Virus record (IMG/VR): IMGVR_UViG_3300022909_002219
Span: 1-37,391 of that record
Length of the DNA: 37,391 nucleotides
Source: a virus
Lineage: Duplodnaviria; Caudoviricetes
Strand: one strand, 5' to 3'
The notes under the pieces are model-generated. The model was not told where the DNA came from and made no database searches. It worked only from the letters and a program-made list of their open reading frames with translations. A program made the position numbers and the translations under genes. Below are positions 1-36,372 of the stretch, piece by piece; within the stretch, counting starts at the first letter, position 1, and each line of letters begins with the position of its first letter.

Positions 1-1096
1 TTATCAAACCAGTGCCTCCCATTGCAATATTTTCTTTAGTAACTGCGGAAGCTTTATAGTCACTATAATTACCCACCCTGATATCTGCGGCACTAGAACT
101 ATCGCTTGGATTTGCAGCAAAAACAATATCGGTTGAATCAAAACTAACTTTATCTTGACTGGGTATATCAAAAACAGTTGGATAAGTTTTTCCATCCCTT
201 GAGCATGCCAATAGCTTAGAATCTCCAATAAAATTAATTAAACTGTATTTATTGTTCGCATTATATATGCAAGTATAATCCACCACCGTACCATCATGCT
301 TGATCACACTCACGCCACCATCGGTGGCCACAGCAATTGTGGGGACGGGTAAACCAGTATCCGCATCAATTGGTGCGTTTGGTAAAATGGTCATGGCGAC
401 GTCGTTGATGTGTTTATTTACAAGATTAGGGGTGGTTACATCTGCGATATTCTGAAAAGTCCCATTTCTATTATAAACTCCTGAGCCGCTTCTATAGCTT
501 TCAGTATAGCCATCCTGTTTGGACCAACGCTCCATTATCTCCGAAATAAAGTTTACGTAAATTAAATGACCATAATTATTACCATCACTACAACCTACGT
601 AAATATTACCATTAATTCCTGTTATGCATGTAGCTGGTCTAGTTATTAAGTATTTACTATTACCACCATTTTCAAACACCATCCACATACTCAAATCTGG
701 ATCATCACCATCATAAATAGTAACCTTGTCTGCTTCCGCCGCAATCACTGCCACCGCAGGAAATTCTCGGCGACCACCGCGAGTCGCAGTATTCAACTCC
801 TCATTGTACCAACTTGTATGTTGTGTACGCTTTCTCCATGCGCCGCCGTCACTATCACGACTAGTATCATACACAAACACATCCACTGCGGTGCCACCAA
901 CCAATGCAGCAATCTCACCAATTTGTAGATCATCCACATTTGCACCGCCGCGCACCAATAAATTTTCATCAGTACCTGTGCGATCCTTTCCGATGTACAA
1001 TCCAAGACCACTCAAGCGGTCACGCATTTTTCTAAAATCCAGAAGCTCGGCGAGTTTTTCGCGCAGGTTTGTTTGTTTTGTTTGTACTGTGCTCAT
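1..1096 (-). CDS. Tail fibre/receptor-binding protein, paralog of 1098..3989 (truncated by left window edge; absent from ORF track)
   Basis: ATG at 1096 immediately after the upstream stop. Open frame MSTVQTKQTNLREKLAELL...AVDVFVYDTSRDSDGGAWRKRTQHTSWYNEELN...NDVAMTILPNAPIDADTGLPVPTIAVATDGGVSVIK continues to the edge; these blocks are shared with the 963-aa protein. Confidence 0.85.
   Translation of the reverse strand, partial: MSTVQTKQTNLREKLAELLDFRKMRDRLSGLGLYIGKDRTGTDENLLVRGGANVDDLQIGEIAALVGGTAVDVFVYDTSRDSDGGAWRKRTQHTSWYNEELNTATRGGRREFPAVAVIAAEADKVTIYDGDDPDLSMWMVFENGGNSKYLITRPATCITGINGNIYVGCSDGNNYGHLIYVNFISEIMERWSKQDGYTESYRSGSGVYNRNGTFQNIADVTTPNLVNKHINDVAMTILPNAPIDADTGLPVPTIAVATDGGVSVIKHDGTVVDYTCIYNANNKYSLINFIGDSKLLACSRDGKTYPTVFDIPSQDKVSFDSTDIVFAANPSDSSSAADIRVGNYSDYKASAVTKENIAMGGTGLI
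278..406. repeat. Conserved block shared with 3171..3299
   Basis: Near-identical DNA encoding NDVAMTILPNAPIDxDTGLPVPTIAVATDGGVSVIKxDGTVVD in both paralogs; flanks do not align. Confidence 0.9.
674..890. repeat. Conserved block shared with 3561..3777
   Basis: Near-identical DNA encoding AVDVFVYDTSRDSDGGAWRKR...DPDLSMWMVF in both paralogs, mostly synonymous differences. Confidence 0.9.
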
Positions 1097-1097
1097 A

Positions 1098-3989
1098 TTA
1101 GTTTTGAATTATTGTGCCTTCAGCTGCGCTGATGCTGTTTGAAATTGCGGTTGTTGTATTGTTTACACGAACAAGTCCGCGGAAATCACTGCGGCCACTG
1201 GCTGTGCCAACATGTAGTAATTGATTGCTGTCATCGTATGCTAATGCAGTCACGGCATCGCTACTGCCATACAATGTGGCTTGTGCGCCATCTTGAAATA
1301 GTACCTTCTCATCGTGGTAGATCTTGGCGATTTGATCGGGTGTTGGAGCTGTTTTAGAAATTCGTAAAAGTGAGAAAGACAATCCTGTAGAAACAGCATT
1401 GTTCGTATTTCCTGAACCTATGACAAGAGGAGCAGTTGTAGCATAAAATGATTGAGTTGTGTATGCATTGTTTGAGTGCCTTAATGTACCATCAACGTAT
1501 ATGTTAAATACGCCAGATGATCTAGTAACAGCGACATTAGTCCAGTTGGGTAAGGTTGAATTGTTACCCATCTGAGCCTCAACCATAGTTGCATACGAGA
1601 TGCCGTCCCAAGAAGCAGTAAATCGTATTCCACCAGCGGCATCTTTATATAATGTCCAAGCCGCATCAACAGTTCGCTTACCAACACCCATCATATCTGA
1701 CGCATCGGTTAAATTCTTAACCCAGAATGATATACAGAAGTCGCCAGCGCCAAATGCTAAATCTGAATTATATGGCTGCTCTAATCTATCTTCGCCGTAA
1801 TCACCACTCGTAAATCCACTGTATGCGACGAGGTCGGCGCCGGGAGCAACTGGGGTTTTGTTTATTTCTCCTACTATTTGTAGGCCGTTATTGTTGACAC
1901 TGCGGTCGTCTACGGCGGGGCGAACGGAGATGTTGTCAACTTCAAGTGACAGATTATCACTTGCAGTGTTAATCATAAAGAAAACCCTCAGATTATCAGA
2001 AGAAGCAACAAAACTATGAGATTTTTTCACAAAAGGTGCATTAGCACCAGAAGACACATATTCTCTACTTATTAACTCAGTATTGGAGGCTAAATCTTGA
2101 ACCATTCCAAACATGTTACCAGTAGTATCAACACCTCTTAGTTCGTAAGATATTGTGTATTTTTTACCAACGACAAAGCTGTCAATATCTTGATATGCAT
2201 AAGCCTGATCTTCTGTTGTTTGGGAAACTTGAAGAACACCATTGTTATCAGATATTGTACCGCGAACAGCAGTCCACCCCGTTGTTCCATTTGAAAAATC
2301 GCCGTTTGTTATGAGTTCTGTTGTGGCTCGAACGCTGACGTTGTCGAATATAACATATGTTCCATCCCCATTTGATAAAGAATTTAATATTATCAATGTT
2401 TCTTGGTGTCGAGCGGTAAAATTAACCATTCCTATATTTCCATTACTAACATCGACTGAATACGAATTACCAGTAGCGTCACTAAAGTATATTCTACCAG
2501 TATTAGACGAATTATTTGCTTCTATAACTTCAGCAGACAATGCATATTGCTTACCCACAATTGTTTGTATGGATATACTTGTTCTAGCATTATTAGTACC
2601 CCCATGTTCGACTTTTAAATTATTATTACTTATCGACAATTGAGCCCCAGCAATAGACGTCCAACCATCTACAGTTCCGTCTCCATTATCATAACCAACA
2701 CTCCCGTCAGCAACAGTTTTAAAATCGCCATTCGTTAACAATTCATCACTATTTACTCCAATTGTTTCCACTGTTGTGTCGCTCAATGTGGCCAATTTTA
2801 TATCGCCGGGCATCCAACCGGTGTTGTATTTGCTATTCACATATGCAACAATAGATTTTTTGGGCTCTGCTTTATTTTCATCAAATAAAGTCAATCCAGA
2901 ACCATTACCAAGTGATTCCGCCTCAATGGCGGTAATTGGATTGTCAGCATTTATAAAAGCAAAATCTCCATAAACATCATTCTCATAAAATGTAATTCCG
3001 TTATCCTTATTTGGTTGCCAATGAGCTATTGCATAATCAAAATCAGGTATATCTAGCGTCCAATAAGATCTCTGCTGGGTAGAATCCATGGTGAATCTAA
3101 TTTTATAGTCTTTTGTGAAGGTGATATGTTCGGTTTGTCTGTAAACAGGATCAGATTGCGTGTTTGTAATATCCACCACCGTTCCATCATCCTTTATCAC
3201 ACTCACACCACCATCGGTGGCCACAGCAATTGTGGGCACCGGTAAACCAGTATCTTCATCAATTGGTGCGTTTGGTAAAATGGTCATGGCGACGTCGTTA
3301 CAATTTGTATTTACGATATAGTTCGTACTATTTTTTTGAGATAAACCTTTACCAGAATTTCTTTCCCCAATCCCTCCAAGATATTCTCTATGGGCACTGT
3401 TTGTAACTCTTTGTGATTTATCTGAAATAAATTTAATTATATATATTGCTTCAGTTGATGTTGTAAGTGATAGTATTCCGTTTAAACAAGTGATTGCACT
3501 ATTAGATGCTGTAGTTGCTCCAATTAAATTATTACTTATTACATAAGATCCACCTTGATTAAACACCATCCACATGCTCAAGTCTGGATCATCACCATCA
3601 TAAATGGTAACCTTGTTTGCTTCCGCGACAATCACTGCAACCGCAGGAAATTCGCGGCGACCACCACGTGTCTCAGTATTCAACTCCTCATTATACCAAC
3701 TGGTGTGTTGCGTGCGCTTTCTCCATGCGCCGCCGTCACTATCACGACTAGTATCATACACAAACACATCCACTGCGCTATCGCTGATCTCGGCAGCAAT
3801 CGCGCGCAATTCTAACATGTCGGCGCTAACATCATCAAGATTCACCGCATCCTGATAAGCCAAGGTTCCCAAATCTTTGTTTAATGGTATTTGATTCGGG
3901 GCGGTGCCAAGATCAGAAGGTGTTATTGGAGCTTGACCGCTAATAGTCAAGTTGTCAAAGTCGGCGGTTTTTGCGGTGAAGTTTTTCAT
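1098..3989 (-). CDS. Tail fibre/receptor-binding protein with two carbohydrate-binding-like domains and a LamG/concanavalin-A-like domain
   Basis: 963 aa. Two EL(L/I)TNGDF...W...DN(V/I)SVR domains (CBM4/9-like) and a LamG-like region GDFCISFWVK...WTNVAVTRSSGVFNIYVDG. Located among fibre genes. Confidence 0.75.
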   Translation of the reverse strand: MKNFTAKTADFDNLTISGQAPITPSDLGTAPNQIPLNKDLGTLAYQDAVNLDDVSADMLELRAIAAEISDSAVDVFVYDTSRDSDGGAWRKRTQHTSWYNEELNTETRGGRREFPAVAVIVAEANKVTIYDGDDPDLSMWMVFNQGGSYVISNNLIGATTASNSAITCLNGILSLTTSTEAIYIIKFISDKSQRVTNSAHREYLGGIGERNSGKGLSQKNSTNYIVNTNCNDVAMTILPNAPIDEDTGLPVPTIAVATDGGVSVIKDDGTVVDITNTQSDPVYRQTEHITFTKDYKIRFTMDSTQQRSYWTLDIPDFDYAIAHWQPNKDNGITFYENDVYGDFAFINADNPITAIEAESLGNGSGLTLFDENKAEPKKSIVAYVNSKYNTGWMPGDIKLATLSDTTVETIGVNSDELLTNGDFKTVADGSVGYDNGDGTVDGWTSIAGAQLSISNNNLKVEHGGTNNARTSISIQTIVGKQYALSAEVIEANNSSNTGRIYFSDATGNSYSVDVSNGNIGMVNFTARHQETLIILNSLSNGDGTYVIFDNVSVRATTELITNGDFSNGTTGWTAVRGTISDNNGVLQVSQTTEDQAYAYQDIDSFVVGKKYTISYELRGVDTTGNMFGMVQDLASNTELISREYVSSGANAPFVKKSHSFVASSDNLRVFFMINTASDNLSLEVDNISVRPAVDDRSVNNNGLQIVGEINKTPVAPGADLVAYSGFTSGDYGEDRLEQPYNSDLAFGAGDFCISFWVKNLTDASDMMGVGKRTVDAAWTLYKDAAGGIRFTASWDGISYATMVEAQMGNNSTLPNWTNVAVTRSSGVFNIYVDGTLRHSNNAYTTQSFYATTAPLVIGSGNTNNAVSTGLSFSLLRISKTAPTPDQIAKIYHDEKVLFQDGAQATLYGSSDAVTALAYDDSNQLLHVGTASGRSDFRGLVRVNNTTTAISNSISAAEGTIIQN

Positions 3990-4003
3990 TTTTTTTTATA
4001 ATT

Positions 4004-6082
4004 TTAAGATTCTAGGGCGGAAATTCTAGCGGCCAGAGATTCATTTTGAGATTTTAGCTGTTCAATCAGCTGCTGTTGTTCTTGGATCGCGGCGATGGCA
4101 TAAGTGAATAAACTATTGTAATCAAGGCCATGTGGGCTGGTTACCGTTCCATCTTGATCAACACCTTCTGGACTGACAGCAAATGCAAGTTCATCAACCG
4201 TCAACACTTGTTGTGCAATAACACCTGCTTCGATGCGATGTTCTACTGGTTCGCCATTAGAATCTACTGGATTGCCGTCAGCATCAAGCTCGAAATCGTG
4301 ATCGGTATCATACATTTCGGTTGTTTTGATGTACTTCTTGGGTGTGATTTTCGAGAGCGTCTCGAGCGCACCAATGATTGGCTGCTCGTTGTGTTTAACG
4401 CGGTCGTCAGAAGTTATCTCATTTGAACCAACATATGATGTGCCTAATATTTTCAACGTACCATTCACATTCAATTTATAAGAACCAGGATCCGTAGTAC
4501 CAATACCTACATTGCCGTTGGAGGCGATACGCATTTTTTCATCTCTATTGCCAACTCCATCATCTGTGCCAAAAACTAAATTTGAATAACGCACACCGTC
4601 TTGCTCTTGTACACTAGCTATATAACTTATTCTACCAAAAGAGTTTCCTGTAGAATAATTCTGAAATACTATACCAACATTATTACCAGCTACGCCAGCA
4701 GACCCTACTTCGTTTCTCAATGTCAAGCTTCCATTTAACCCTGAGTTGCTATTGGCATAAATAGAATTACTATTTGTAACATTAACACTATTGCCAACCA
4801 CTTCCAACTTCGCACTAGGACTCGTAGTACCAATACCTACATTGCCTGTGTTTTTAGGTATTACTAGATGTTGGTCTATTGTAGTGTTATTGTCATCTGT
4901 TGTTCCTAAAAACAAACTGTTAGTTGTACCATCATACCCTACTGTGGCTCCTGTTGAACCTGCAGATTCTTCATAAAAAGTATAGGCTTTATCACCAGAA
5001 GCTGCAGAACTAATCCTTACGTTTCCTGATTCTACATCAAGCTTATACCCAGGACTCGCAGTACCAATACCTACATTGCCTGCGGAGTCGATGGTCATAT
5101 CTGTACGAGTCGCAGATGCAGTACCAAATCTTATATTATGTCCATCACTTCTGATGCATAAGTCATCTGCTAATGCACCAACAAGAATTTGTGAAGTTGC
5201 ACCACACAGACCAACACGAGCTTGACCTACACCACCCTTACTAAATGATTGTATGACATCCTTAGTTCCTGCTACTTCATTAATATCTAACTTCGTAACA
5301 GGATCCGTAGTACCAATACCTACATTGCCGTCGGAGGTGATGCGTACTTTTTCTGTCGCAGAGTTATTGGTGTAAGTTTTGAAAGCCATATAGCTATCAA
5401 TATCGCTGTCAGTAGCAATCCAAGCATTGTCCTTACCAACCTCAATAACACCTGCGTCATTTTTAACTGCTCCGCTATCACGAGATAAGCCAAAACCTAA
5501 CTGGACTGTTTGTAAAGTTGAATTTGCGGTTACATTTTCATTAGCCAAGACAATAGGCATTTGAGAACTGTTTTCGTTTTTCACTACATGCAAAGGTTCA
5601 TTAGGACTCGTAGTACCAATACCTACATTGCCGTCGGATTGCAAATATAAATAGCTTAGGTTTCGAGCTTCACTACGAAAATCAATGCTACCATTTGTAC
5701 TACCAATGGAAAAATCCGTTGAAGCTCCCCCACTATTCTTTTGATCAAAATAAATTTTTCTTGTAGCTCCATTAGTTTGGTCGCTAATTGTAATGTCTCC
5801 ATTACTAACCTCCAACTTCCCACCAGGATTCGTAGTACCAATACCTACATTGCCGGTGTTAAGGATAGTTATTTTTTCTGATGTTCCCCGTGTTATATGA
5901 GCTTTATTTTCTGAGTCTATATAAAACCTAAAACTGTCGATTCCTGTTCCCGATTGGTGACCCAATAGTATTCCACCTAAATTAGTTGGGCCTCCAGCAA
6001 TGTGTAACTTAGAAACAGGATTCGTAGTACCAATACCCACATCACCCGTGAATATACCATTTTTTGTTCTAAAATTTTTCAT
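4004..6082 (-). CDS. Tail fibre with 7 GxVGIGT repeats and C-terminal intramolecular chaperone (peptidase S74-like)
   Basis: 692 aa. Seven G(N/D)VGIGTxxP motifs, then TSDDRVKHNE (S74-type autocleavage motif) and a C-terminal coiled coil. Confidence 0.85.
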   Translation of the reverse strand: MKNFRTKNGIFTGDVGIGTTNPVSKLHIAGGPTNLGGILLGHQSGTGIDSFRFYIDSENKAHITRGTSEKITILNTGNVGIGTTNPGGKLEVSNGDITISDQTNGATRKIYFDQKNSGGASTDFSIGSTNGSIDFRSEARNLSYLYLQSDGNVGIGTTSPNEPLHVVKNENSSQMPIVLANENVTANSTLQTVQLGFGLSRDSGAVKNDAGVIEVGKDNAWIATDSDIDSYMAFKTYTNNSATEKVRITSDGNVGIGTTDPVTKLDINEVAGTKDVIQSFSKGGVGQARVGLCGATSQILVGALADDLCIRSDGHNIRFGTASATRTDMTIDSAGNVGIGTASPGYKLDVESGNVRISSAASGDKAYTFYEESAGSTGATVGYDGTTNSLFLGTTDDNNTTIDQHLVIPKNTGNVGIGTTSPSAKLEVVGNSVNVTNSNSIYANSNSGLNGSLTLRNEVGSAGVAGNNVGIVFQNYSTGNSFGRISYIASVQEQDGVRYSNLVFGTDDGVGNRDEKMRIASNGNVGIGTTDPGSYKLNVNGTLKILGTSYVGSNEITSDDRVKHNEQPIIGALETLSKITPKKYIKTTEMYDTDHDFELDADGNPVDSNGEPVEHRIEAGVIAQQVLTVDELAFAVSPEGVDQDGTVTSPHGLDYNSLFTYAIAAIQEQQQLIEQLKSQNESLAARISALES
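4074..4414. repeat. 341-bp direct repeat (chaperone domain), second copy 6178..6518
   Basis: Manual ungapped alignment at offset 2104 gives about 10 mismatches; in coding direction identity begins at the TSDD motif. Confidence 0.95.
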
Positions 6083-7868
6083 GTTATTTGTTTTCTAGAT
6101 TTTTAATGCGAGAAACCAGGGAGTCAATTGTTGACTGTTGAGATTCATTTTGAGATTTCAAGTCTTCGATTGTTTGTTGTTGTTCTTGGATCGCGGCGAT
6201 GGCATAAGTGAATAAACTATTGTAATCAAGGCCATGTGGGCTGGTTACCGTTCCATCTTCGTCAACACCTTCTGGGCTCACAGCAAATGCCAATTCATCA
6301 ACCGTCAACACTTGTTGTGCAATAATACCTGCTTCGATGCGATGTTCTACTGGTTCGCCATTAGAATCTACTGGATTGCCGTCAGCATCAAGCTCGAAAT
6401 CGTGATCGGCATCATACATTTCGGTTGTTTTGATGTACTTCTTGGGTGTGATTTTCGAGAGCGTCTCGAGCGCGCCAATGATTGGCTGCTCGTTGTGTTT
6501 AACGCGGTCATCAGAAGTGTGAACGGTTACTCCATTGACCGCAATATTTCCATGCACATCCAACTTTTGCAGAGGACTCGTAGTACCAATACCTACATAG
6601 CCGCCGGAGGTGATGGTCATTCGTTTTTGTTTTATTTCAGTAGTGGCATCCGTCCCGAAATGCATTGCATCAATCGAATTATCATATGTAATTCTACCGA
6701 TTGATTTATTGTCTGAATCACCGAACAACACACCTACCAAATTACTTGTTCCACCTGTAATACCGACAAAAGTGTCACCGCTTCCCTGAACATTTAATGG
6801 GTAACCAGGATTCGTAGTACCAATACCTACCTTGCCGTTGGAGTCGATGCGCATTGCTTCTGATATAGTACTTGTAGAACGAGTTTGAAAAGTTAATGCA
6901 CATTTTCCATCTACAGCATTCTCACTTACTGCATGAATTCTTGCTAACGGATTATTACCACTTACTGTCGATACACCTGCAAAAAGATCAATACCACAAT
7001 GACTGTCGGCAGTGTCTTCTTTCATGTTCCGTAATCGCAGCAAATTTCCCGAGGTGCCGCTACTATACAAAGCGCCACTATTAGTATGAACCTCTAACGG
7101 TCTAGATGGACTCGCAGTACCAATACCTACATTGCCGTTTTTCTGTACTCTTAATTTATGACTACCTGATTGATCGGTAATCTTTAAATAAGCCGCCTCT
7201 TCATGAAAATTAGCGTCAGTATTTGTAATATGTAAACCTGCTGGATTACCTGCTGAACTAGGGCTTATCTCAATTTTAGCAATATCACCAGCTATTCTTT
7301 CACCTACTACTTGCAACTTCGCAGCAGGACTCGTAGTACCAATACCTACATGGCCGTCGGAGTGGTTAATTGAAAACCTATTAGCAATAAAAGAGTCATC
7401 ATCAGCAACCGTATCTATCTGGAAAATAGCACCATTGTTTCTGATTAATGAATTTAAATCTGACTGGTCGTTTTCACTAAGCCATATCCTAGGTTGAGAA
7501 CCCTCTAGCTTCATGGATGGCGTACCTCCTGCTATATGCAATTTATAATCAGGACTCGTAGTACCAATACCTACATTGCCATCTTCGTCGATGGTCATTC
7601 TTGCAGCCAGGCCACTTCCATTTTGTCTTGTCGCAAAATACAGCGATGTATTTCTGTCTCCAGCATCTTTAAAATGAGCACCAATTCTTGCTGTTATAAA
7701 ATCTGTACTATTATGGAAATCCAATGATGCAAAATTACCGTCTGTATCAGATTTATTTCTTATTTTTATGCAAGCATTATTATTATTTGCCATAAGATTT
7801 GTAACCGCTTCCTCTCCCTCAATAGTTAATTTAGAACTAGGATTCGTAGTACCAATACCTACATTGCC
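4488..7868. repeat. Array of 13 interspersed 29-bp direct repeats, consensus GGAYYCGYAGTACCAATACCTACATTGCC
   Basis: Copies start at 4488, 4818, 5052, 5301, 5604, 5826, 6018, 6574, 6808, 7108, 7327, 7552, 7840. Core AGTACCAATACC is invariant. Encodes GxVGIGTxxP on the minus strand. Confidence 0.95.
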
Positions 7869-10328
7869 TCCCGAAAAAGCAAATCCTTGGCTTGATGTAA
7901 ATCCAAGCTTAACAGTATCATCACTACCCCATGTGATTCCTGCATCGCTCAATGAACTACTGGCTAAGTTTTTAGCAATAACAATGTTATTATCTTCAAC
8001 CTCAAGAGTTTGAGTATTGATTGTGGTTGTATTACCATTTATTGTTAAATCGCCGCCGACAGTTAAATTTCTTTGAATGCTTACGTTTCGATCATTGTAT
8101 TGAAGATCGTCTGTTCCAAGTTCCCAGTGAACATCTTTTCCGCCAAACACAGTATGAATACGATAGCTTGTTGTAGGAACAGGTTCAGAGAAAATTACAT
8201 GATATCCAGTTTCACTTATACCAGAAGTAGTATACGGAATGATTTCTCCTTCGCCATTTATTTCCAAGCTTGCTGCGATTCTAGGAACATTATCCAAGGT
8301 GCCAATTGAACTTGTCCAATTGATGGCAAATGATTCAGTTCCCTGAGGAACATTCGAGACAAAAGAATTTGGAACCTCTGTGCTGGAACTTGATCCGCCA
8401 ATTCCAAGGGTATCAGGAGAAGCTGCAATCCAAGCGCTTCCGTCCCATTTTATGATATCATTTGTTCCTCCAGCACTTGTGCCCCCAACTGAATTGAAAC
8501 GTATATCCTCAACATATGCAATACCATTAACATCAAGATCGTAAGAATTATTAGGGCTTTCAGTTCCAATACCAACCGATCCTGCGTTATAATAAATGTT
8601 TCCATCTATAGCTGCGTCATCTTCCCATTTTCCAAGATCATCAATGGTTCCAGTTAAAACATCATTACCATTTATTTTGATTCCTTGAGGACCCGAAACA
8701 TTCAAGTTTCCACTGACTATCAAATTATCAGAAAGTTTAACATCTCCGCGATCAAAGTATATGCTATTTACTCCAGTTTCCCAATAAACATCTTTACCGC
8801 CAAACGAAGTATGAAGCTTGTACCCTAATGATGGAATTTCTTTTGCGAAAACTACATGAAAACCAGTCTCACTAACTCCAGACAATACATACGGAATGAT
8901 TTCTCCATCTCCTTCAATTTCTAGCTGAGTGCAAACCGCAGGAATTTCTCCCAATTCCTGAGAAAATTCGACGGCGTGAACCGAAGAGCCTACGCTCATT
9001 TGCTGTATAAAAGATTTTGGAATTTCTCCAGTCAATAAACCTCCTGGATTATTCGCGGCGGGAGCCCAGGTTGCTCCATTCCACATTAAAATCTCTCCAT
9101 TTGTAGGAGTGCCTCCGCCAATCACACCATTAGATTCTACAACAAATTCATTGCCAACAGAAATTTTTGAGGAATCAATAGTGCCAGCATAAACATCTCC
9201 TTGAACATGAAGCTTCTCAGGGCTTGGCGTGCTTGTTCCAATTCCTACATTTCCATAATAATATATATTATTAGCTGTATCTTCAGACCATTTTCCCAAG
9301 TCTTCTACAGTTCCGGTTAAAACAGGATTTCCACCAAGAGTCAAGCTGTTTGAAAATTGCGCGTTAGTCGACTTGATCGTGCCCACCACATCAAGCTCGC
9401 TTGAAGGATTGGTTGTTGCGATACCCACATTTCCTTGATTATAATAGATTTCTCCAGCCTCAGATTCATTCTCTGTCCACTTGCCAAGTTGATCATTCGA
9501 AAGTATGCCGTCAACAACTCCACTAAGAACATCTATATCACCTGTTGCAGAGTCAACAACCGCCTCAAGAGTATCAAGATCTCCGCTGATAACATCTATA
9601 TCACCTGTTGCAGAGTCAACAACCGCCTCAAGAGTATCAAGATCTCCGCTGATAACATCAACGCTTCCAGATAAACTCTCAAAAGCTGTATCATCATCAA
9701 CCTCGGCACTTAAAAGACCACTAACGACCCCGCTGATTGTATCGATATCACCTGTTGCAGAGTCAACAACCGATTCAAGAATATCAAGATCTCCGCTGAT
9801 AACATCAATGTCAGAAGAAACATTGGAGCCTTTTACAAAAAGATTAGCTGCGATTAAAACATCACCGCCTTGTTGTATAAATATTCCACTTCCAGCAGAA
9901 TCACCAAGAGACAATCCATCAGTATCCCTTGCTCTCAATTCATCTCCCTGAAATTGCATACCATCAGAGATTCTAACATGCTCGCTAAATTCCCATGCAT
10001 CAGTAGCATTGTTCCAAAGAATTGTTTTATTGGTGGTTCCTCGCAGAGTCAAGCCCCCTCCATCTGCAGTTATATTGGTAGGATTATCAACGCTACCGAG
10101 CTCTATGTTTTTATCGTCAACAGTTATCTCGCTACTGTTTATGGTTGTCAAGGTTCCATCCACAGAAAGATTACCGCCTACTTTAACATCCCCCGTTACA
10201 TGCAAGCTTGCCTCGGGCACAGTTGTTCCAATACCAACCTTGCCACCACTAATACCAACAATAGCTTCTGTTTCTTCAACAAAGGAACCATCTCCACTTT
10301 TGATTAAATATACTTGATTTTCTGACAT
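6084..10328 (-). CDS. Long tail fibre with coiled-coil stalk, 10 GxVGI(G/A)T repeats and C-terminal S74-like chaperone
   Basis: 1414 aa. N-terminal TTINSSEITVDDKNIELG fibre motif, acidic heptad repeats, two copies of an approx. 85-aa beta domain, GNVGIGT modules and the TSDDRVKHNE chaperone. Confidence 0.85.
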   Translation of the reverse strand: MSENQVYLIKSGDGSFVEETEAIVGISGGKVGIGTTVPEASLHVTGDVKVGGNLSVDGTLTTINSSEITVDDKNIELGSVDNPTNITADGGGLTLRGTTNKTILWNNATDAWEFSEHVRISDGMQFQGDELRARDTDGLSLGDSAGSGIFIQQGGDVLIAANLFVKGSNVSSDIDVISGDLDILESVVDSATGDIDTISGVVSGLLSAEVDDDTAFESLSGSVDVISGDLDTLEAVVDSATGDIDVISGDLDTLEAVVDSATGDIDVLSGVVDGILSNDQLGKWTENESEAGEIYYNQGNVGIATTNPSSELDVVGTIKSTNAQFSNSLTLGGNPVLTGTVEDLGKWSEDTANNIYYYGNVGIGTSTPSPEKLHVQGDVYAGTIDSSKISVGNEFVVESNGVIGGGTPTNGEILMWNGATWAPAANNPGGLLTGEIPKSFIQQMSVGSSVHAVEFSQELGEIPAVCTQLEIEGDGEIIPYVLSGVSETGFHVVFAKEIPSLGYKLHTSFGGKDVYWETGVNSIYFDRGDVKLSDNLIVSGNLNVSGPQGIKINGNDVLTGTIDDLGKWEDDAAIDGNIYYNAGSVGIGTESPNNSYDLDVNGIAYVEDIRFNSVGGTSAGGTNDIIKWDGSAWIAASPDTLGIGGSSSSTEVPNSFVSNVPQGTESFAINWTSSIGTLDNVPRIAASLEINGEGEIIPYTTSGISETGYHVIFSEPVPTTSYRIHTVFGGKDVHWELGTDDLQYNDRNVSIQRNLTVGGDLTINGNTTTINTQTLEVEDNNIVIAKNLASSSLSDAGITWGSDDTVKLGFTSSQGFAFSGGNVGIGTTNPSSKLTIEGEEAVTNLMANNNNACIKIRNKSDTDGNFASLDFHNSTDFITARIGAHFKDAGDRNTSLYFATRQNGSGLAARMTIDEDGNVGIGTTSPDYKLHIAGGTPSMKLEGSQPRIWLSENDQSDLNSLIRNNGAIFQIDTVADDDSFIANRFSINHSDGHVGIGTTSPAAKLQVVGERIAGDIAKIEISPSSAGNPAGLHITNTDANFHEEAAYLKITDQSGSHKLRVQKNGNVGIGTASPSRPLEVHTNSGALYSSGTSGNLLRLRNMKEDTADSHCGIDLFAGVSTVSGNNPLARIHAVSENAVDGKCALTFQTRSTSTISEAMRIDSNGKVGIGTTNPGYPLNVQGSGDTFVGITGGTSNLVGVLFGDSDNKSIGRITYDNSIDAMHFGTDATTEIKQKRMTITSGGYVGIGTTSPLQKLDVHGNIAVNGVTVHTSDDRVKHNEQPIIGALETLSKITPKKYIKTTEMYDADHDFELDADGNPVDSNGEPVEHRIEAGIIAQQVLTVDELAFAVSPEGVDEDGTVTSPHGLDYNSLFTYAIAAIQEQQQTIEDLKSQNESQQSTIDSLVSRIKNLENK
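9528..9659. repeat. Perfect 63-bp tandem repeat (2 units; degenerate third copy 9741..9808)
   Basis: AACATCTATATCACCTGTTGCAGAGTC... at 9528 and 9591; encodes the 21-aa (3 heptad) unit DVISGDLDTLEAVVDSATGDI. Confidence 0.95.
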
Positions 10329-10392: not shown

Positions 10393-12354
10393 TTAACTAG
10401 AAACAAAATACCTCATGAATATTTTTTTTAGTTCATATGTATAAGCCATAAAATGAAGTATAAATGTATCATCATCAATCATTCGCGGATCAGTGTTGAA
10501 TTTATTCATAGGAAAAATCTTACGATTAAATCCAAAGCCGTCGCTTGATTTCAATATCTTACAGAGTATTTCTTGGTCACCTCCGCTTGCATACAAACTA
10601 CTTTTATCGCCCTTGAATTCCATCCATTTTTTGATTATGTTTTTTGTATAATTATGATTTCTAAAAATTAAAACTCCACTGTTGAGCATAGAATTTTTAC
10701 CCACATCCTCGCAGGCAATTATCTTTTTGGTTGAGCTGCATTTGTCAAGAATATCCTCAAAGCGCTTTTCGGAATTGTATATCACTGTATCTGAATCCAT
10801 CCACACAATATCTTCGTGATCATCAAAGTGATTGAGAATCGCTCGCGCTTTGGACCAATTTGCACTCGCATCATCTTGTAGTTTTTCGCGATAAACATAA
10901 AATGTATAACCTTGTTTTAAACAATAATCTCGCACACTCATTTCAGAACATATCGCATAATCTGCAATCTCAGGAGTATACAAACTAACAATCGCGATTT
11001 TCTTTCCAGGATTGTATGTTGTGAATTTTTCTTTTGGTACTTGTATTTGGTTTAAATGTTTACTTATGTATTTAAGGTAATCGCGGTCAACAAGATTAGA
11101 CCATTCATCTTTCAACCTTAAAAATTCTTGATGTTTTCGCGGATCAACCTCTTTCTCTTGAGGCGGCTCACTTTTCGCGACAACTATTTTTGCAATGTTT
11201 TGCTTTAATTGTTTTTTATATTCGATCCACCAAGATTGTACTTTTTTGGAATGTCCAATTATCCATTGTGAATTTTCAAGAAGTAAGTTTATATCGTTGG
11301 ATATGTTATTCCAAGATCCAGTTTCAATGAGTGGATGTTCGCCAAGTAGATTGTGCCAATAATCATCTTTTTCAACAATTGGTATTGCGCCAACTTCGAG
11401 CGCCTCATACAATCTAAAAGTATCAACGCTCGTATTGCCGCGAGGACATGGTACAAAAATTGACTCGCTCAGTATATTCTTGTACTCCTGGGTGCTCAAA
11501 GAATCTTCAGACCTCCAACCCTCAGCAATGTGAAGATGATATTCGCCATTGCATTTTTTCAATGATTCAATCATTTTTGAGCGATCACCTTGAGCATGAA
11601 CCTGACCAGCAAAACACCAAGTATATTTTTTATCAATTTTATTTTTATATTTTTTTGTATAATTAGAAGTGTCATTAAATACTTCATCATAAAAACTCCA
11701 ATCCAAATCAGTTCTTTTTTTTGTGTCTATTTTTTTTGAACTTGCCGACCCAAGTAGTGGAATTTTTAATTCGTAACCGCTAACCATATAATTTTTTCGA
11801 CCATTAAATTCGTTCTGTTTAAACATAAAGGTATCCCCAAGATGGTGTTTTATTTTTTCAGGAATTTCTATAAAATTGTTTTTGAAGAAACAAAAAAACA
11901 TGCCTGGTCCATGATTAAATAGTTTATTATAAGGAATCAATTCTCTTTTTGACGGAAATGTTTTTTTATTAAATATATGTGTCTCCGGCACGCCGTTACC
12001 ATTTATACTTCTTGGATCAATAAAAACGCAGCCCATATCTTCAGAAACATTATTTAACAAAAACTCAAAAACATCCACATCAATCACGGCATCATCATTT
12101 AAAACACAACACAATTCATTTTTACATAAATCAACCCCCATATTAACACTAGGATTAAAGTACAAACTATACTCAGGAATCACTCTTTTTAATTTTTCAA
12201 AATCATTTATCCATACAGGAGCATCCTTTTCGAGATTATCTATCAAAATAATCTCACCAACAAATTGATTTTTATTGAGCCTGTAAATTGATTCAATTAA
12301 ATAATCGTTTGCTGCCCAAACTGTCGGAATAATCAAAGACACTCTCTTGTTCAT
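10393..12354 (-). CDS. Multi-domain glycosyltransferase: GT2-like + C-terminal half of exostosin/GT47-like + GT34-like
   Basis: VSLIIPT...EIILIDN...VLNDD (GT2); YTWCFAG...SIFVPCPRGNTSVDTFRLYEALEVGAIPIV (GT47); YCLKQGYTF...WSKARAI...VWMDSD...LNSGVLIFRN...GDQ (GT34). Confidence 0.8.
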   Translation of the reverse strand: MNKRVSLIIPTVWAANDYLIESIYRLNKNQFVGEIILIDNLEKDAPVWINDFEKLKRVIPEYSLYFNPSVNMGVDLCKNELCCVLNDDAVIDVDVFEFLLNNVSEDMGCVFIDPRSINGNGVPETHIFNKKTFPSKRELIPYNKLFNHGPGMFFCFFKNNFIEIPEKIKHHLGDTFMFKQNEFNGRKNYMVSGYELKIPLLGSASSKKIDTKKRTDLDWSFYDEVFNDTSNYTKKYKNKIDKKYTWCFAGQVHAQGDRSKMIESLKKCNGEYHLHIAEGWRSEDSLSTQEYKNILSESIFVPCPRGNTSVDTFRLYEALEVGAIPIVEKDDYWHNLLGEHPLIETGSWNNISNDINLLLENSQWIIGHSKKVQSWWIEYKKQLKQNIAKIVVAKSEPPQEKEVDPRKHQEFLRLKDEWSNLVDRDYLKYISKHLNQIQVPKEKFTTYNPGKKIAIVSLYTPEIADYAICSEMSVRDYCLKQGYTFYVYREKLQDDASANWSKARAILNHFDDHEDIVWMDSDTVIYNSEKRFEDILDKCSSTKKIIACEDVGKNSMLNSGVLIFRNHNYTKNIIKKWMEFKGDKSSLYASGGDQEILCKILKSSDGFGFNRKIFPMNKFNTDPRMIDDDTFILHFMAYTYELKKIFMRYFVSS

Positions 12355-23280: not shown

Positions 23281-23613
23281 GTGAAAAAATTCAACAAGCG
23301 CGAAATAATAAAAAAAATAGTATTCGAACCAGACAAGCAAAAGCGTATATTCTGGGCTCGAGAGATGAAACTATTAAATGATCTGCTAGAAATTTTTCCC
23401 AATCAAGATTTCTGGCAACGTATGACTTTCATTAAAGTTCCTTCTCTTGCCGTGCTTAGAGCTGGCGCTGGACTAAAAAATCTAACAAAAAAATACAAGG
23501 ACTTTAATTATAAAATTCCAGAAAAAAAAGAATTTCCTATAGGAGATAAAACCGGAGAAGATAAAATAATCTCGAAAAAACCAAAAACAATACGACAATT
23601 TATAGATGAGTAA
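23281..23613 (+). CDS. Hypothetical basic protein
   Basis: 110 aa, GTG start after a promoter, overlaps the recA start. Confidence 0.75.
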   Translation: MKKFNKREIIKKIVFEPDKQKRIFWAREMKLLNDLLEIFPNQDFWQRMTFIKVPSLAVLRAGAGLKNLTKKYKDFNYKIPEKKEFPIGDKTGEDKIISKKPKTIRQFIDE

Positions 23614-24712
23614 AACAAAAGACATACAAACAACAGATCAAATAGCAAAATTTCTTTCTGATAAAGATAATCAGAAATATCATTACAACTTCCATGAATC
23701 AGAAGAATACAAAATATCAAGCGGTAGTTTGAATTTAGATATTGCCCTTGGAGGAGGACTTCCAAGTGGAGCGCATAGATTCACAGGAATCAACGAAGGC
23801 GGTAAAACTAGCTGCGCCATGGCATTCGCAAAGAATTTCCAAAAGCACTTTGGAGATAAAGGTATGATTATATACATCAAGAGCGAAGGTAGGTTTAGTC
23901 CCGAAATGATACAGAGATCAGGAATCGATACTGACCCAGAAAAGTTTTTTGTTTTTGATTGCAATATATTCGAAAAAGTATTTGAGCTTGTAAGAGAGCT
24001 TGTTTTTAATAATGATCATGACAAAAAATACATGTTTATCATTGATAGTGTTGATGCATTATGCAGGGTTGGAGATATCGACAAACCATTCGCTGAAAGT
24101 GAGCAAGTTGCAGGAGGCGCATTGATCACATCTGTGTTTCTCAAGAAAATGGTTCTACCCATCACAAAGATGGGGCACACAATGATTTTAACAAGTCAAG
24201 TTCGAGTAGAAGTTGCTACAAATCCTTATGCCGCTAGAGGAGGACCTAAAGTAAAACAAGCAGGCGGAAATGCAATCAAACACTATGCAAACTTTATTCT
24301 TGAATTTGAAGAGCGTTACAATTCCGATCTCATATTTAAAAATCCAACAGCAACCAAATTAGATGAAAAAGGAGAGCCGATAGGTCACTATTGTAAAATA
24401 CGTTTTCGCAAAAGCGTAAATGAAAAAACTGGATCCACTGTTCGCTATCCAATCAAGTACGGCCAAAAAGACGGCAAATCGGTTTGGCGTGCAAGAGAAA
24501 TATTAGACATGCTTTATCTTTTTAATTTGATCGACAAAAAAGGCGCGTGGATATCTGTGTCTGAAGACCTGATCAAAGAGCTTTCAGATAAAAAGTTTGA
24601 GATCAATGAAAAATTTCAAGGAGAACAAAGGTTGATAGACTTCCTAGAAGAAAATGAAAAACTATCTGATTTTCTTTATGAGGATTTCAAAAATTTAACC
24701 AATGCGCTTTAA
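23606..24712 (+). CDS. recA: RecA/UvsX-like recombinase
   Basis: ISSGSLNLDIALGGGLP, Walker A GINEGGKT, Walker B FIIDSV, SQVR, AGGNAIKHYA, KKGAW. Confidence 0.9.
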   Translation: MSKTKDIQTTDQIAKFLSDKDNQKYHYNFHESEEYKISSGSLNLDIALGGGLPSGAHRFTGINEGGKTSCAMAFAKNFQKHFGDKGMIIYIKSEGRFSPEMIQRSGIDTDPEKFFVFDCNIFEKVFELVRELVFNNDHDKKYMFIIDSVDALCRVGDIDKPFAESEQVAGGALITSVFLKKMVLPITKMGHTMILTSQVRVEVATNPYAARGGPKVKQAGGNAIKHYANFILEFEERYNSDLIFKNPTATKLDEKGEPIGHYCKIRFRKSVNEKTGSTVRYPIKYGQKDGKSVWRAREILDMLYLFNLIDKKGAWISVSEDLIKELSDKKFEINEKFQGEQRLIDFLEENEKLSDFLYEDFKNLTNAL

Positions 24713-34297: not shown

Positions 34298-34951
34298 ATG
34301 AAAACAAAAATACTAACAGTAGCCGCGCTTTCAGCGGTATTTCTTATCAACGCAGCTTTCGCAGCAACAGGATCTTTATCCTTGGGTTACGGCTCTGACT
34401 TTTTTCGAAGGGGCTCGCTTCTCTCTAAAGATTCGCTTCAAGCAGCAGCTTCTTACTCGACACAGGTTCAAGGGGTCACTGCAAGCGCAAATGTTCAAAC
34501 TGCGCATGGCAATGAAAACCTTGAAGATGCATACATCATCTCTGGAGGTTTATCTCAAAAGATTGGATCTTTGTTGACTGTCTATGGCGGACTCGAACAT
34601 GCAGAATCCCTGGGTGGCGCAAGTGAACTTGATGCGGTGGTAGCTGTATCAATTGATACATTATTGTCTCCCTCGATTTCCGCAGCAAGAAATGTAGATG
34701 AAGACTTGTATACCTTTGAGTTGAGCGTTTCTCACGATCTAGACTTAAAGTTTGCAACCTTATCAATCAATGGTTCAGTGGGAAACACGGACACGCGATC
34801 TGTAGACAATGTAGACTACTATTCTGTTGGATTAGGATTATCAAAAGAGCTTCAGAAGGGGTTAACTCTTTCTGTTAATGGAGACTTCGTTGACTCCTCT
34901 TTGATCAAAGACGATTTTTTAATTGGGGCAGCACTTACTGCTTCGTTTTAA
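34298..34951 (+). CDS. Outer-membrane beta-barrel protein (TorF/Gcw_chp-like, tentative)
   Basis: Sec signal peptide ending AFA, alternating amphipathic strands, SDFFRRG motif, C-terminal Phe. Confidence 0.7.
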   Translation: MKTKILTVAALSAVFLINAAFAATGSLSLGYGSDFFRRGSLLSKDSLQAAASYSTQVQGVTASANVQTAHGNENLEDAYIISGGLSQKIGSLLTVYGGLEHAESLGGASELDAVVAVSIDTLLSPSISAARNVDEDLYTFELSVSHDLDLKFATLSINGSVGNTDTRSVDNVDYYSVGLGLSKELQKGLTLSVNGDFVDSSLIKDDFLIGAALTASF

Positions 34952-34977
34952 TATAGTAAGTATAATCGATCACACTT

Positions 34978-35005
34978 GCCGCCTCAGAAATGGGGCGGCT
35001 TTTTT
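34978..35005 (+). terminator. Rho-independent terminator
   Basis: GCCGCCTCA-GAAA-TGGGGCGGC stem-loop followed by TTTTTT. Confidence 0.9.
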
Positions 35006-35073
35006 GTGTATATATTTAATTGAAAAATATCTTTCTTGAGGGTAATATTTCTTATTCTATTGGTATATAAAGC

Positions 35074-36372
35074 ATGAAAAGCAATTTAAAAAAATTAAAC
35101 GAATTAGGCAGAAGAGAATTTATCGCAAATGCCGCTAAAACATGTTTTGGGGTTGGATTGATGCCTATGGTTGGGTCGTACATTCACAACACTGTTGAGG
35201 CTTTGAATCCAGGCTCAAGAATAGCATCTGCAAGACATGTAATATATCTAAACATGTCAGGAGCAATGTCGCACATAGATACCTTCGCTCCAAGACCAGA
35301 TGTGCCAAAAATTCAAGGCAACTTAAAATCAATTTCTACAAGCGCAGATGGAATCATTCTTTCAGAAAACCTTCCCAAGACAGCACAAGTAATGCATAAC
35401 GCCTCGATAATTAAAACAATGAACACTAGTCAAGGCGCGCACATGCAAGCAAGCTACCTGATGCAAACAAGCTATCTCAAAAGAGGTACTATAGTGCATC
35501 CAACTTTCGGAAGCTGGGTTTCAAAACTTTCGGGCTCAATAAACAACACAATTCCAATGAATGTAAAAATTGGAGGAGGTGGAGGAGGATCTGGATTTCT
35601 TGAAGCAAAATATGGTGCGCTTCCAATAAGCAATCCAAAAAATGGACTGGCAAACAGCAAGCTTGCTTCCTATGTTGATCAAGAACACTTCGGCGGAAGA
35701 ATGTCATTAGTAAATAAACTAAATTCAAGCTTTTCAAAATCATATCCTCATAAAAAAGTAAGAGCATATAGCGACTTGTATAAAGATGCAATTAAATTAA
35801 TGAACAGTCAAGATTTAAATGCATTTGATATCAGCCAAGAGCCAGAATCAATGAATGAATTATATGGATCTACAAATTTTGGACAAGGCTGTCTGCTAGC
35901 AAGAAGACTGATTGAAAATAAAGTCAGATATGTCGAAGTCTCGAGAGGAGGGTGGGACACTCATGATAACAATTTTGAAAGAGTTGCAGACAATTGTGCG
36001 GACATAGATCATGCGTTAAGCGGCCTGTTGATAGATCTTGAGCAGAGAGGTTTGCTTGGTGAAACATTGGTTGTATTAACTTCTGAATTTGGAAGAACTC
36101 CAAACATCAACGGCAGAAACGGAAGAGATCACTGGCCTTATTGCTTTAGCGCTTTTCTCGCAGGAGGAGGAATTAAAGGAGGATTCTCATTTGGAGAAGT
36201 GGATGATCAAGGCAGAAATCCTGTGGAAGGCAAAGCGGTTAAGCCTGAAGACTTAAATGCAACTATAGCATATGTTCTTGGTCTTGCTATCAATGATATA
36301 CAATATTCTCCTTCTGGAAGACCTTTTACAGTTGCGCATAAAGGCGAACCTGTTTTTGATGTCATTGCATAA
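35074..36372 (+). CDS. DUF1501 family protein with Tat signal
   Basis: GRREFI twin-arginine motif; ARHVIYLNMSGAMSHIDTF, FGQGCLLARRLIE.KVRYVEV, GWDTH, SEFGRTP, GRDHW, LAGGGIKGG. Confidence 0.9.
   Translation: MKSNLKKLNELGRREFIANAAKTCFGVGLMPMVGSYIHNTVEALNPGSRIASARHVIYLNMSGAMSHIDTFAPRPDVPKIQGNLKSISTSADGIILSENLPKTAQVMHNASIIKTMNTSQGAHMQASYLMQTSYLKRGTIVHPTFGSWVSKLSGSINNTIPMNVKIGGGGGGSGFLEAKYGALPISNPKNGLANSKLASYVDQEHFGGRMSLVNKLNSSFSKSYPHKKVRAYSDLYKDAIKLMNSQDLNAFDISQEPESMNELYGSTNFGQGCLLARRLIENKVRYVEVSRGGWDTHDNNFERVADNCADIDHALSGLLIDLEQRGLLGETLVVLTSEFGRTPNINGRNGRDHWPYCFSAFLAGGGIKGGFSFGEVDDQGRNPVEGKAVKPEDLNATIAYVLGLAINDIQYSPSGRPFTVAHKGEPVFDVIA

Follow-up and report, generated by a model that had tools for sequence, protein, structure and literature searches.

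Homogenised 30-bp joints as favoured seams for module exchange in two phage fibre genes

Organisation of the two fibre genes

The window—i.e. the whole stretch of 37,391 nucleotides analysed here, representing the IMG/VR record IMGVR_UViG_3300022909_002219 of an uncultured marine virus from the Caudoviricetes—carries on its minus strand two adjacent fibre genes, both matching PHROG tail fibre families, in which a short coding repeat, the joint, alternates with unique modules as follows:

6084–10328, minus strand: fibre gene 1, encoding 1414 aa; residues 1–820 forming the constant proximal part, 6 joints and 5 modules, S74-chaperone terminal segment
7869–10328, minus strand: proximal constant region of gene 1; GxVGI(G/A)T four times, not homogenised; 98–99% identical in the relative L001
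7839–7868, minus strand: joint 1; identity with L001 stops here
7581–7838, minus strand: module M1; period 96 aa
7551–7580, minus strand: joint 2; pattern match
7356–7550, minus strand: module M2; period 75 aa; shares homology with Bd2133, second β-helix subdomain; relatives in 7 other contigs
7326–7355, minus strand: joint 3; in run X5, one contig continues through it into a different module from M2
7137–7325, minus strand: module M3; period 73 aa
7107–7136, minus strand: joint 4; pattern match
6837–7106, minus strand: module M4; period 100 aa
6807–6836, minus strand: joint 5; different upstream module in contigs L037 and L038
6603–6806, minus strand: module M5; period 78 aa; found in three contexts
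6573–6602, minus strand: joint 6; different downstream terminal segment in L037
6084–6572, minus strand: terminal segment 1; S74 chaperone, with SDDRVK as cleavage motif; 89% identity to its gene 2 counterpart over 300 nt
4004–6082, minus strand: fibre gene 2, encoding 692 aa; leader of 12 residues, 7 joints and 6 modules, S74-chaperone terminal segment
6017–6046, minus strand: joint 7, the first of gene 2; divergent 5' half
5825–5854, minus strand: joint 8; preceded by a module, period 64 aa
5603–5632, minus strand: joint 9; preceded by a module, period 74 aa
5300–5329, minus strand: joint 10; preceded by a module, period 101 aa
5051–5080, minus strand: joint 11; preceded by a module, period 83 aa
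4817–4846, minus strand: joint 12; preceded by a module, period 78 aa
4487–4516, minus strand: joint 13; preceded by a module, period 110 aa
4004–4486, minus strand: terminal segment 2; SDDRVK motif and S74 chaperone

The pattern search matched the joint 13 times in the window (six copies in gene 1 and seven in gene 2), with 0 matches expected from 100 shuffles, just where an earlier sequence-only reading had placed the repeats; the periods given there (330, 234, 249, 303, 222, 192, 556 across the gene boundary, 234, 300, 219, 225 and 288) were reproduced exactly, and all 11 within-gene periods are divisible by 3, as it had claimed. Nine of the 13 copies are exact, three have one mismatch and one—the first copy of gene 2 (6018–6046)—has three. 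The joint is better described as a unit of 30 bp, i.e. 10 codons, encoding in frame the peptide GNVGIGTTxP, the 13 joints bounding 11 modules in the two S74-chaperone fibre genes. The modules had been described as different sequences, and as DNA they are indeed unrelated; at the protein level, however, a faint relationship could be recognised (best pairwise E about 1e-4).

With regard to the C-terminal chaperone, PF13884 was recognised in gene 1 at residues 1272–1343 (21.1 bits, slightly below the cut-off of 22) and in gene 2 at residues 558–629 (24.1 bits, above the cut-off), and the SDDRVK of both genes represents the SDxxxK motif of S74-chaperoned fibres. By inspection, neither fibre N-terminus has a hydrophobic leader, and both the signal peptide and the conserved N-terminal domain of ~130 aa typical of the MAT fibres are absent, the first joint of gene 2 starting already at residue 13. 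No relatives of gene 2 were found in viral_contigs, and a 660-aa gene had no match among cultured phages. The host is likely a marine member of the Opitutales.

Codon spelling of the joints

The synonymous identity among the array joints is 0.94 vs 0.33 expected, while the four proximal motifs of gene 1 use mixed codons (0.42 vs 0.33 expected), in agreement with the earlier claim that the codons differ there; the claim of identical IGT codons holds as well, the spelling ATT GGT ACT being the same in 13/13 joints. The DNA identity of the joints exceeds what the protein needs. The possibility, raised in the sequence-only reading, that the repeat codons are simply the preferred ones has to be rejected, since ACG is used in 11/11 Thr cases although it is the window's rarest Thr codon (0.10), and GGC, ranking only third, is used in 12 of the 13 joints.

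Loci collected by the DNA pattern carry the joint spelling by construction; among 178 sites from 21 contigs, the AAT/AAC spelling is genome-specific (0.70 vs 0.51; 0 of 10000 permutations). Fibres of cultured marine phages (the S-TIM5 group, S-CRES2, S-SM2 and pelagiphages), whose annotations read virion structural or tail fibre protein, exhibit the same motif with a spacing of 70–110 aa, but differ in homogenisation. It is partial in S-CRES2, which has a spelling of its own (0.65 vs 0.30), and missing from the S-TIM5-group isolates despite a like protein design (0.35–0.50 vs 0.32–0.34), so that homogenisation is dispensable for such fibres; the clade of the window represents the extreme.

Module exchange among relatives

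The repeats had been read as crossover sites, and the switches seen in relatives map into the repeat; fixed module order and content, which the sequence-only reading had set against this, are not seen in the relatives. L001 is 99.4% identical to the window over 1758 nt upstream to joint 1 and has other modules from within joint 1 onwards, M5 occurs in three contexts, one of them within a different fibre gene, and the strains c171 and c369—98% identical over 2484 nt and having four common modules at 89–98%—show the orders a..b c d and a..c x d..b, respectively. Among 90 pairs of sites with a common flank (at least 88% identity), from which exact re-sampled duplicates had been excluded beforehand and which are not independent events, the partner was switched in 77, both partners were kept in 8 and 5 were intermediate; the flank-sharing comparison at 95% or more covers 19 and 20 independent groups. 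Modules thus change neighbours at the joint. Since the count is anchored on motif sites, it cannot measure crossovers falling elsewhere; five of 15 cross-contig nucleotide hits cover modules partially and in L038 the crossover lies inside the S74 domain, so that the joint is a favoured, not an exclusive, seam for crossover. The evidence for module swaps comes entirely from metagenome assemblies (contigs).

In our reading, the joints probably serve as in-frame seams at which modules are exchanged, moved and reordered across positions, genes and phages. Short-homology recombination of the RecA/UvsX type is the likely means, with gene conversion preserving the similarity of the joints, and the resulting fibres, predicted to be trimeric β-helix chains, likely vary host-surface binding.

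Concerning the contig mapping, the depth differs between the modules and the constant part, and run X16 holds the constant part without cover of M1–M3; both are compatible with mixed arrays, but were not counted as evidence, because contig depth and holes prove nothing. At most joints, the mapped contigs start and end in the repeat and are not assignable to this genome.

Structure and diversity of the modules

The structure of Bd2133 (PDB 8OND) aligns with joint–M2–joint across both loops (E 1.8e-10), the joint motif corresponding to the MAT capping loop of the Bdellovibrio β-helix fibres (PMC10769870). As the joint encodes this loop, the swap positions coincide with a seam in the structure. 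Trimeric β-helix chains are predicted for the rebuilt fibres, the trimer by homology; they likely vary host-surface binding, and a role in host recognition or receptor binding is suggested for the modules. Judging from Bd2133 and Bd3182, the capping loop would close one β-helix subdomain, so any order of modules would be expected to fold; each subdomain may then offer a different surface or cleft, and changing host glycans would select for a diverse pool.

The 262 modules form 241 clusters, with 224 of the 262 being singletons. Their pN/pS of 0.66, vs 0.05–0.27 in six control genes or parts, is below 1 and hence compatible with relaxed selection no less than with diversifying selection. Arrays that otherwise differ have several modules in common at 100% identity, suggesting recent spread of these modules.

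It is conceivable, albeit unlikely, that the shuffling is real but neutral, slippage and unequal crossover having homogenised the motif, with the modules as interchangeable, length-setting shaft segments of a fibre whose tip alone binds the host. The pN/pS below 1 and the differing array lengths would agree with that, as would, according to PMC10769870, the cleft seen in Bd3182 but not in Bd2133—the closest solved match—and the MAT specificity demonstrated for tips. The wealth of singletons, however, goes beyond what spacers need, the pN/pS is several-fold above that of other genes, and identical modules in differing arrays point to recent spread; moreover, the terminal segments ahead of the S74 site are short, so that the modules form the distal end after cleavage.

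Crossover position and recombination genes

The sequence-only reading had located a RecA/UvsX gene in the window and no site-specific recombinase; the former was found:

23606–24712, plus strand: RecA/UvsX-like recombinase, the candidate engine; present in 3/3 related records searched

and the latter was recognised neither among the 29 window proteins scanned nor in the profile searches of related records. These searches used known-family profiles (unknown families would be missed) on phage records, one of them, G001, complete, and revealed no PF00589 (tyrosine recombinase/integrase) in six records, no PF00239 (serine recombinase/resolvase) in three, and none of PF07508, ERF, RecT and Rad52 in five. 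G001, scanned at 107 of its 129 ATG-started ORFs of at least 120 aa (ORFs spanning the 20-kb cuts were missed), contains genes for SSB and a Holliday-junction-resolvase-like protein. All matches of UvsX to cultured phages are below 29%.

In the window as well as in 5/5 records, all joint copies are direct and form a single cluster, with no inverted copies, and the joint shows no hairpin (folding z-scores -0.7 to 0.4). The mismatch pattern rules out a single crossover point in the joint, a fixed point being rejected at every position tested (best case 52 mismatches vs 19 expected).

An unrecognised site-specific recombinase or nickase of phage or host might target the joint, the array being an intragenic integron with its crossover point blurred by later gene conversion. 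A clade of large Verrucomicrobiota phages would then draw on hundreds of one-domain fibre cassettes, pooled across the ocean, excised as circles and each a separate glycan-binding unit, with the standard 30-bp connector as the target of the enzyme, and the virion would show a combinatorial, rewritable receptor array. This appears rather improbable. A single spelling is, indeed, common to phages with UvsX only 47–49% identical, sequence identity falls off abruptly at the edges of the joint, the position-free moves of single modules look like cassette excision and re-insertion, and there is a weak dyad symmetry about the joint's central base; the dyad is, however, largely imposed by the peptide, two of the four free position pairs failing to pair, and recognition of the joint by dyad or hairpin is unsupported. 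The enzyme is further disfavoured by the lack of known recombinase families in the records searched, the missing hairpin, the rejected fixed crossover point, the different spellings in other lineages and the exact joint sequence being present in 0 of 185,579 cellular genomes.

That the swaps are artefacts of assembly, with chimeras arising at the 30-bp repeat where populations are mixed, is most improbable: although most joints interrupt the Logan contigs, which are built from 31-letter words, re-sampled strains repeat their arrays (L035 being 99.99% identical to window positions 1–7234), 46 junctions were found again exactly across contig groups, the joints at 6574, 6808, 7108 and 7327 are bridged by single contigs in the window order, the swapped modules have their own SNPs and joint variants not creatable by a misjoin, and some identity ends at the motif in cultured S-TIM isolates, too.

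With short-homology recombination, the preferred reading, crossovers between any two joints—of co-infecting phages or within one genome—would cause in-frame loss, gain or swap of whole modules. Entry would be limited to modules with joints matching the local spelling, and each crossover would copy that spelling; homogenisation per lineage and genome would thus follow. It should be pointed out that a homology of 30 bp, reaching about 50 bp if the looser flanks are counted, is little for recombination of the RecA type, which speaks against that part of the reading.

Comparison with known systems

Integrons and shufflons also reorder repeat-bounded units in an array, but depend on a cognate tyrosine recombinase acting at sites that are folded or inverted. 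The array shares the repeat-bounded reordering, whereas neither a cognate tyrosine or serine recombinase, nor an attC-like fold, nor inverted sites, nor a fixed crossover were detected in the phage records. The reverse transcriptase encoded in cis by diversity-generating retroelements was likewise found in 0/3 records and not among the window proteins.

Closer parallels exist among T4-like phages. The T-even adhesins gp37/gp38, too, have conserved motifs between variable segments of a host-recognition gene, with exchanges in or near the motifs and without a dedicated recombinase, according to PMC3157838 (Tetart 1996, 1998 as cited there); exchanges in or near conserved motifs are seen in the array as well. 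The monomeric gp38, however, has four segments at fixed positions (PMC3157838), whereas the array involves dozens to hundreds of subdomains moving between positions, genes and phages, and its joints, unlike gp38 as described there, are homogenised at synonymous sites. In the PeSL cassettes of RB49 and phi1, short DNA repeats are the homologous-recombination sites for inserting, deleting and replacing cassettes; PMC2839356 likens them to integrons, reports mini-circles as demonstrated and found no recombinase beyond the T4-like machinery. A PeSL is, however, an intergenic promoter/stem-loop that moves whole ORFs (PMC2839356), while the joints lie inside coding sequences, in frame and without folding, and move subdomains.

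As for the protein design, the Bdellovibrio MAT fibres Bd2133 and Bd3182 resemble the array by their S74 chaperone with SDxxxK, capping-loop motif, serial β-helix subdomains and mosaic design, but they are exported bacterial proteins with a conserved N-terminal domain, described as tip-swapping; the excerpted account treats neither DNA identity of the loop nor reordering of shaft modules (PMC10769870). Literature searches yielded no published description of joint-based shuffling of fibre modules, and the excerpts of PMC12906663 and PMC4611503 contain nothing on such a mechanism.

In its working, the array resembles T-even motif swapping and PeSL cassettes, but its cassettes are intragenic and position-free. 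Modular evolution would accordingly extend below the gene level, a common connector moving subdomains between positions, genes and distant phages with the frame kept and the fold likely kept. The array also offers a natural test of the minimum homology for phage recombination, of how a common spelling comes to be standard in a community, and of how variable host surfaces are followed by phages whose marine bacterial hosts degrade polysaccharides, and the module pool represents a large untapped set of small, putatively trimeric domains that may bind glycans.

Joint array in two fibre genes

Thirteen matches to the joint, a 30-bp in-frame repeat, were found in the window at exactly the coordinates given beforehand, with 0 expected by chance; nine copies are exact, three carry one mismatch and one carries three. 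They sit, as the sequence-only reading had claimed, in two neighbouring genes; these are minus-strand genes of 1414 aa (gene 1, joints 1-6) and 692 aa (gene 2, joints 7-13), both matching PHROG tail fibre families and having a Peptidase_S74 chaperone as their C-terminal end. Each copy encodes the peptide G-x-V-G-I-G-T-(T/A)-x-P. Synonymous identity is 0.94 across the 13 joints and 0.42 across the four proximal motifs (the GxVGI(G/A)T copies in the constant part of gene 1), with 0.33 expected in both cases, confirming that the latter use different codons. The joint codons are not the preferred ones, since ACG, although the rarest Thr codon of the window, is chosen 11 of 11 times in joints. The pattern is real, and largely as had been proposed.

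Switching of modules at the joints

The related locus L001 is 99.4% identical to the window across 1758 nt as far as joint 1, beyond which it contains unrelated modules flanked by the same repeat. Module M5 of gene 1, preceded in the window by M4 and followed by terminal segment 1 (the S74-bearing end of the gene), has a different module before it and the same terminal segment after it in L038, and in L037, in a different fibre gene, the upstream module of L038 with a different terminal segment. Seven further contigs contain relatives of M2; just two of these contigs have an upstream neighbour in common, and the upstream neighbour seen in the window is found in none. The strains L100 and L109, 98% identical across 2484 nt, have four common modules (89-98%) arranged as a..b c d and a..c x d..b, respectively. 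Contigs of the sequencing run X5 differ at joint 3, which one of them crosses in the window order and another crosses into a different module.

Altogether, 490 motif sites were collected from 77 contig groups (129 loci) and reduced to 447 by collapsing exact duplicates, the site pairs being counted when at least one 70-nt flank was common at 88% or more. Among the 90 flank-sharing pairs, a change of partner is seen in 77, both partners are retained in 8, and the other 5 are intermediate; three of the eight partner-keeping pairs are proximal motifs outside the array and only three are array joints. The collapsed duplicates came mostly from five re-sampled strains with exactly reproduced arrays (46 junctions), which argues for reproducible assemblies; L035 is 99.99% identical to window positions 1-7234. 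Clustering at 88% places the 262 modules from 41 contigs (median period 80 aa) in 241 clusters, of which 224 are singletons. That modules are shuffled at the joints, as initially suggested, is almost certain.

At L038:1-770, M5 and terminal segment 1 pass, through a crossover within the S74 domain, into the gene-2 end, so that the entire gene-2 array is absent from this place in the contig; this may represent a deletion or another layout, or perhaps a chimera.

Mechanism of exchange

The joint spelling behaves as predicted by concerted evolution, the choice of AAT or AAC being genome-specific (0.70 vs 0.51) and the cultured phages of the same protein design ranging from S-TIM5, -61 and -66, with no homogenisation (0.35-0.37 vs 0.34 expected), to S-CRES2, with a different joint spelling (0.65 vs 0.30 expected). 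The joint forms no hairpin, its copies are all direct and clustered in five of five records, and no spare copies were found elsewhere in five of five. The earlier statements on RecA/UvsX and on site-specific recombinases also held: UvsX is encoded in three of three records searched, and searches of three to six records per family detected neither a tyrosine or serine recombinase nor a reverse transcriptase, ERF, RecT or Rad52. Less probably, an unknown enzyme or a host enzyme drives the exchange. An enzyme cutting at one point would leave the 5' bases travelling with the upstream module and the 3' bases with the downstream one; position 8, however, shows no linkage to the upstream module, and position 25 shows little to the downstream one. 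When each module group contributes a single pair (19 and 20 groups), a single fixed crossover point is rejected, since mismatches at every tested point reach roughly three times the expected number or exceed it (52 vs 19 at the best-fitting point, the bases within a pair not being independent). Further crossovers lie within modules (5 of 15 cross-contig matches are partial) and, in L038, within the S74 domain.

The rejection of a fixed crossover point, the lack of a hairpin and of any dedicated recombinase detected in the records searched, together with the presence of UvsX and the concerted spelling, favours short-homology recombination with gene conversion, by which the modules would be exchanged. 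Patches below 50 bp are cited as enough for T4-type recombination in the Discussion of PMC2839356, and the joint with its looser flanks lies within that range.

Structure, selection and known systems

The best solved-structure matches are Bdellovibrio MAT fibres, the joint-M2-joint stretch aligning to Bd2133 with an E-value of 1.8e-10. PMC10769870 identifies the joint motif as the capping loop of trimeric β-helices, and, from the alignment numbering, the Bd2133 subdomain boundary (E813/N814) would fall at the motif end, so that a swap at a joint would exchange whole subdomains. In Bd3182 two capping loops bound a cleft, for which a comparison is drawn with the O-antigen clefts on phage spikes, and Bd2133 has no such cleft. 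The pN/pS ratio is 0.66 in shared modules (16 pairs, ends trimmed); comparing the window with L001 gives 0.05-0.27 for six control genes or parts, a seventh showing zero differences; this fits exposed, host-contacting units with a predicted binding function. A homology-driven mechanism with a host-binding role appears probable.

The system works like T-even adhesin shuffling, where exchange occurs at conserved motifs (PMC3157838), and like PeSL cassettes (PMC2839356). The array nevertheless falls outside integrons, shufflons, DGRs and PeSLs; the fibre proteins are related to MAT fibres but lie outside MATs proper. The distinction of the array lies in cassettes of one domain each, in frame and not tied to a position, with a connector that is standardised at the DNA level and common to a phage clade. 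The full-text literature searched, covering few subscription papers, yielded no account of such fibre-module joints and no match to GNVGIGT, and none of the matches listed for VGIGT concerned phage fibres.

Relatives, host and other variable genes

Most genes of the window, a 37-kb virus record, are shared (UvsX 91%, helicase 89%) with G001, a 184-kb record rated 100% complete. G001 also has genes for a terminase, lambda-like minor tail proteins and SSB, and one resembling a Holliday junction resolvase. The DUF1501 protein of the window is 72-79% identical to proteins from 22 Verrucomicrobiota records (the best 22 of 80 loci), labelled mostly Opitutia or Opitutales, which makes a marine Opitutales bacterium the likely host. 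The stretch is present in runs from salt-marsh, estuary and marine metagenomes. The following further features were observed:

Window 2-1096 and 1098-3989: a pair of fibre-like paralogues, one truncated at the contig end
Window 9513-9813: a tandem repeat of 63/84 bp, acidic, within fibre gene 1
Window 11632-12346: N-terminal GT2 part of a 653-aa glycosyltransferase
Window 34298-36372: host-like genes, an outer-membrane beta-barrel-like protein (labelled by inspection) and DUF1501, closest to marine Opitutales

G001 has an additional PSCyt2/PSD1 gene adjoining DUF1501. The fibre-like paralogues, one of which (963 aa) has a laminin G domain, are a second mosaic system, with blocks 86-88% identical (273-426 with 3166-3319; 663-927 with 3550-3814) and unrelated sequence between them; the same blocks occur in relatives L027 and L084-L087. 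Gene 2 (6047-6082, MKNFRTK) and the 963-aa gene (3960-3989, MKNFTAK) have similar short leaders, perhaps a shared virion anchor. At the acidic repeat, L001 has 28 additional residues, and a 162-bp repeat differs between L073 and L082. The GT2 part, absent in L001, L009 and L104-L105, is a domain-level insertion or loss; its gene belongs to a block of glycosyltransferases with two DUF2827 genes. Upstream of the M5-bearing fibre gene, L037:100-3750 encodes a long Asp/Gly-rich repeat protein with DxDGDG motifs. The cultured cyanophage S-CRES2 (L134:7275-9930), a single gene of which carries seven joints of one spelling followed by five of another (12 in all), provides a culturable model for the joint system.
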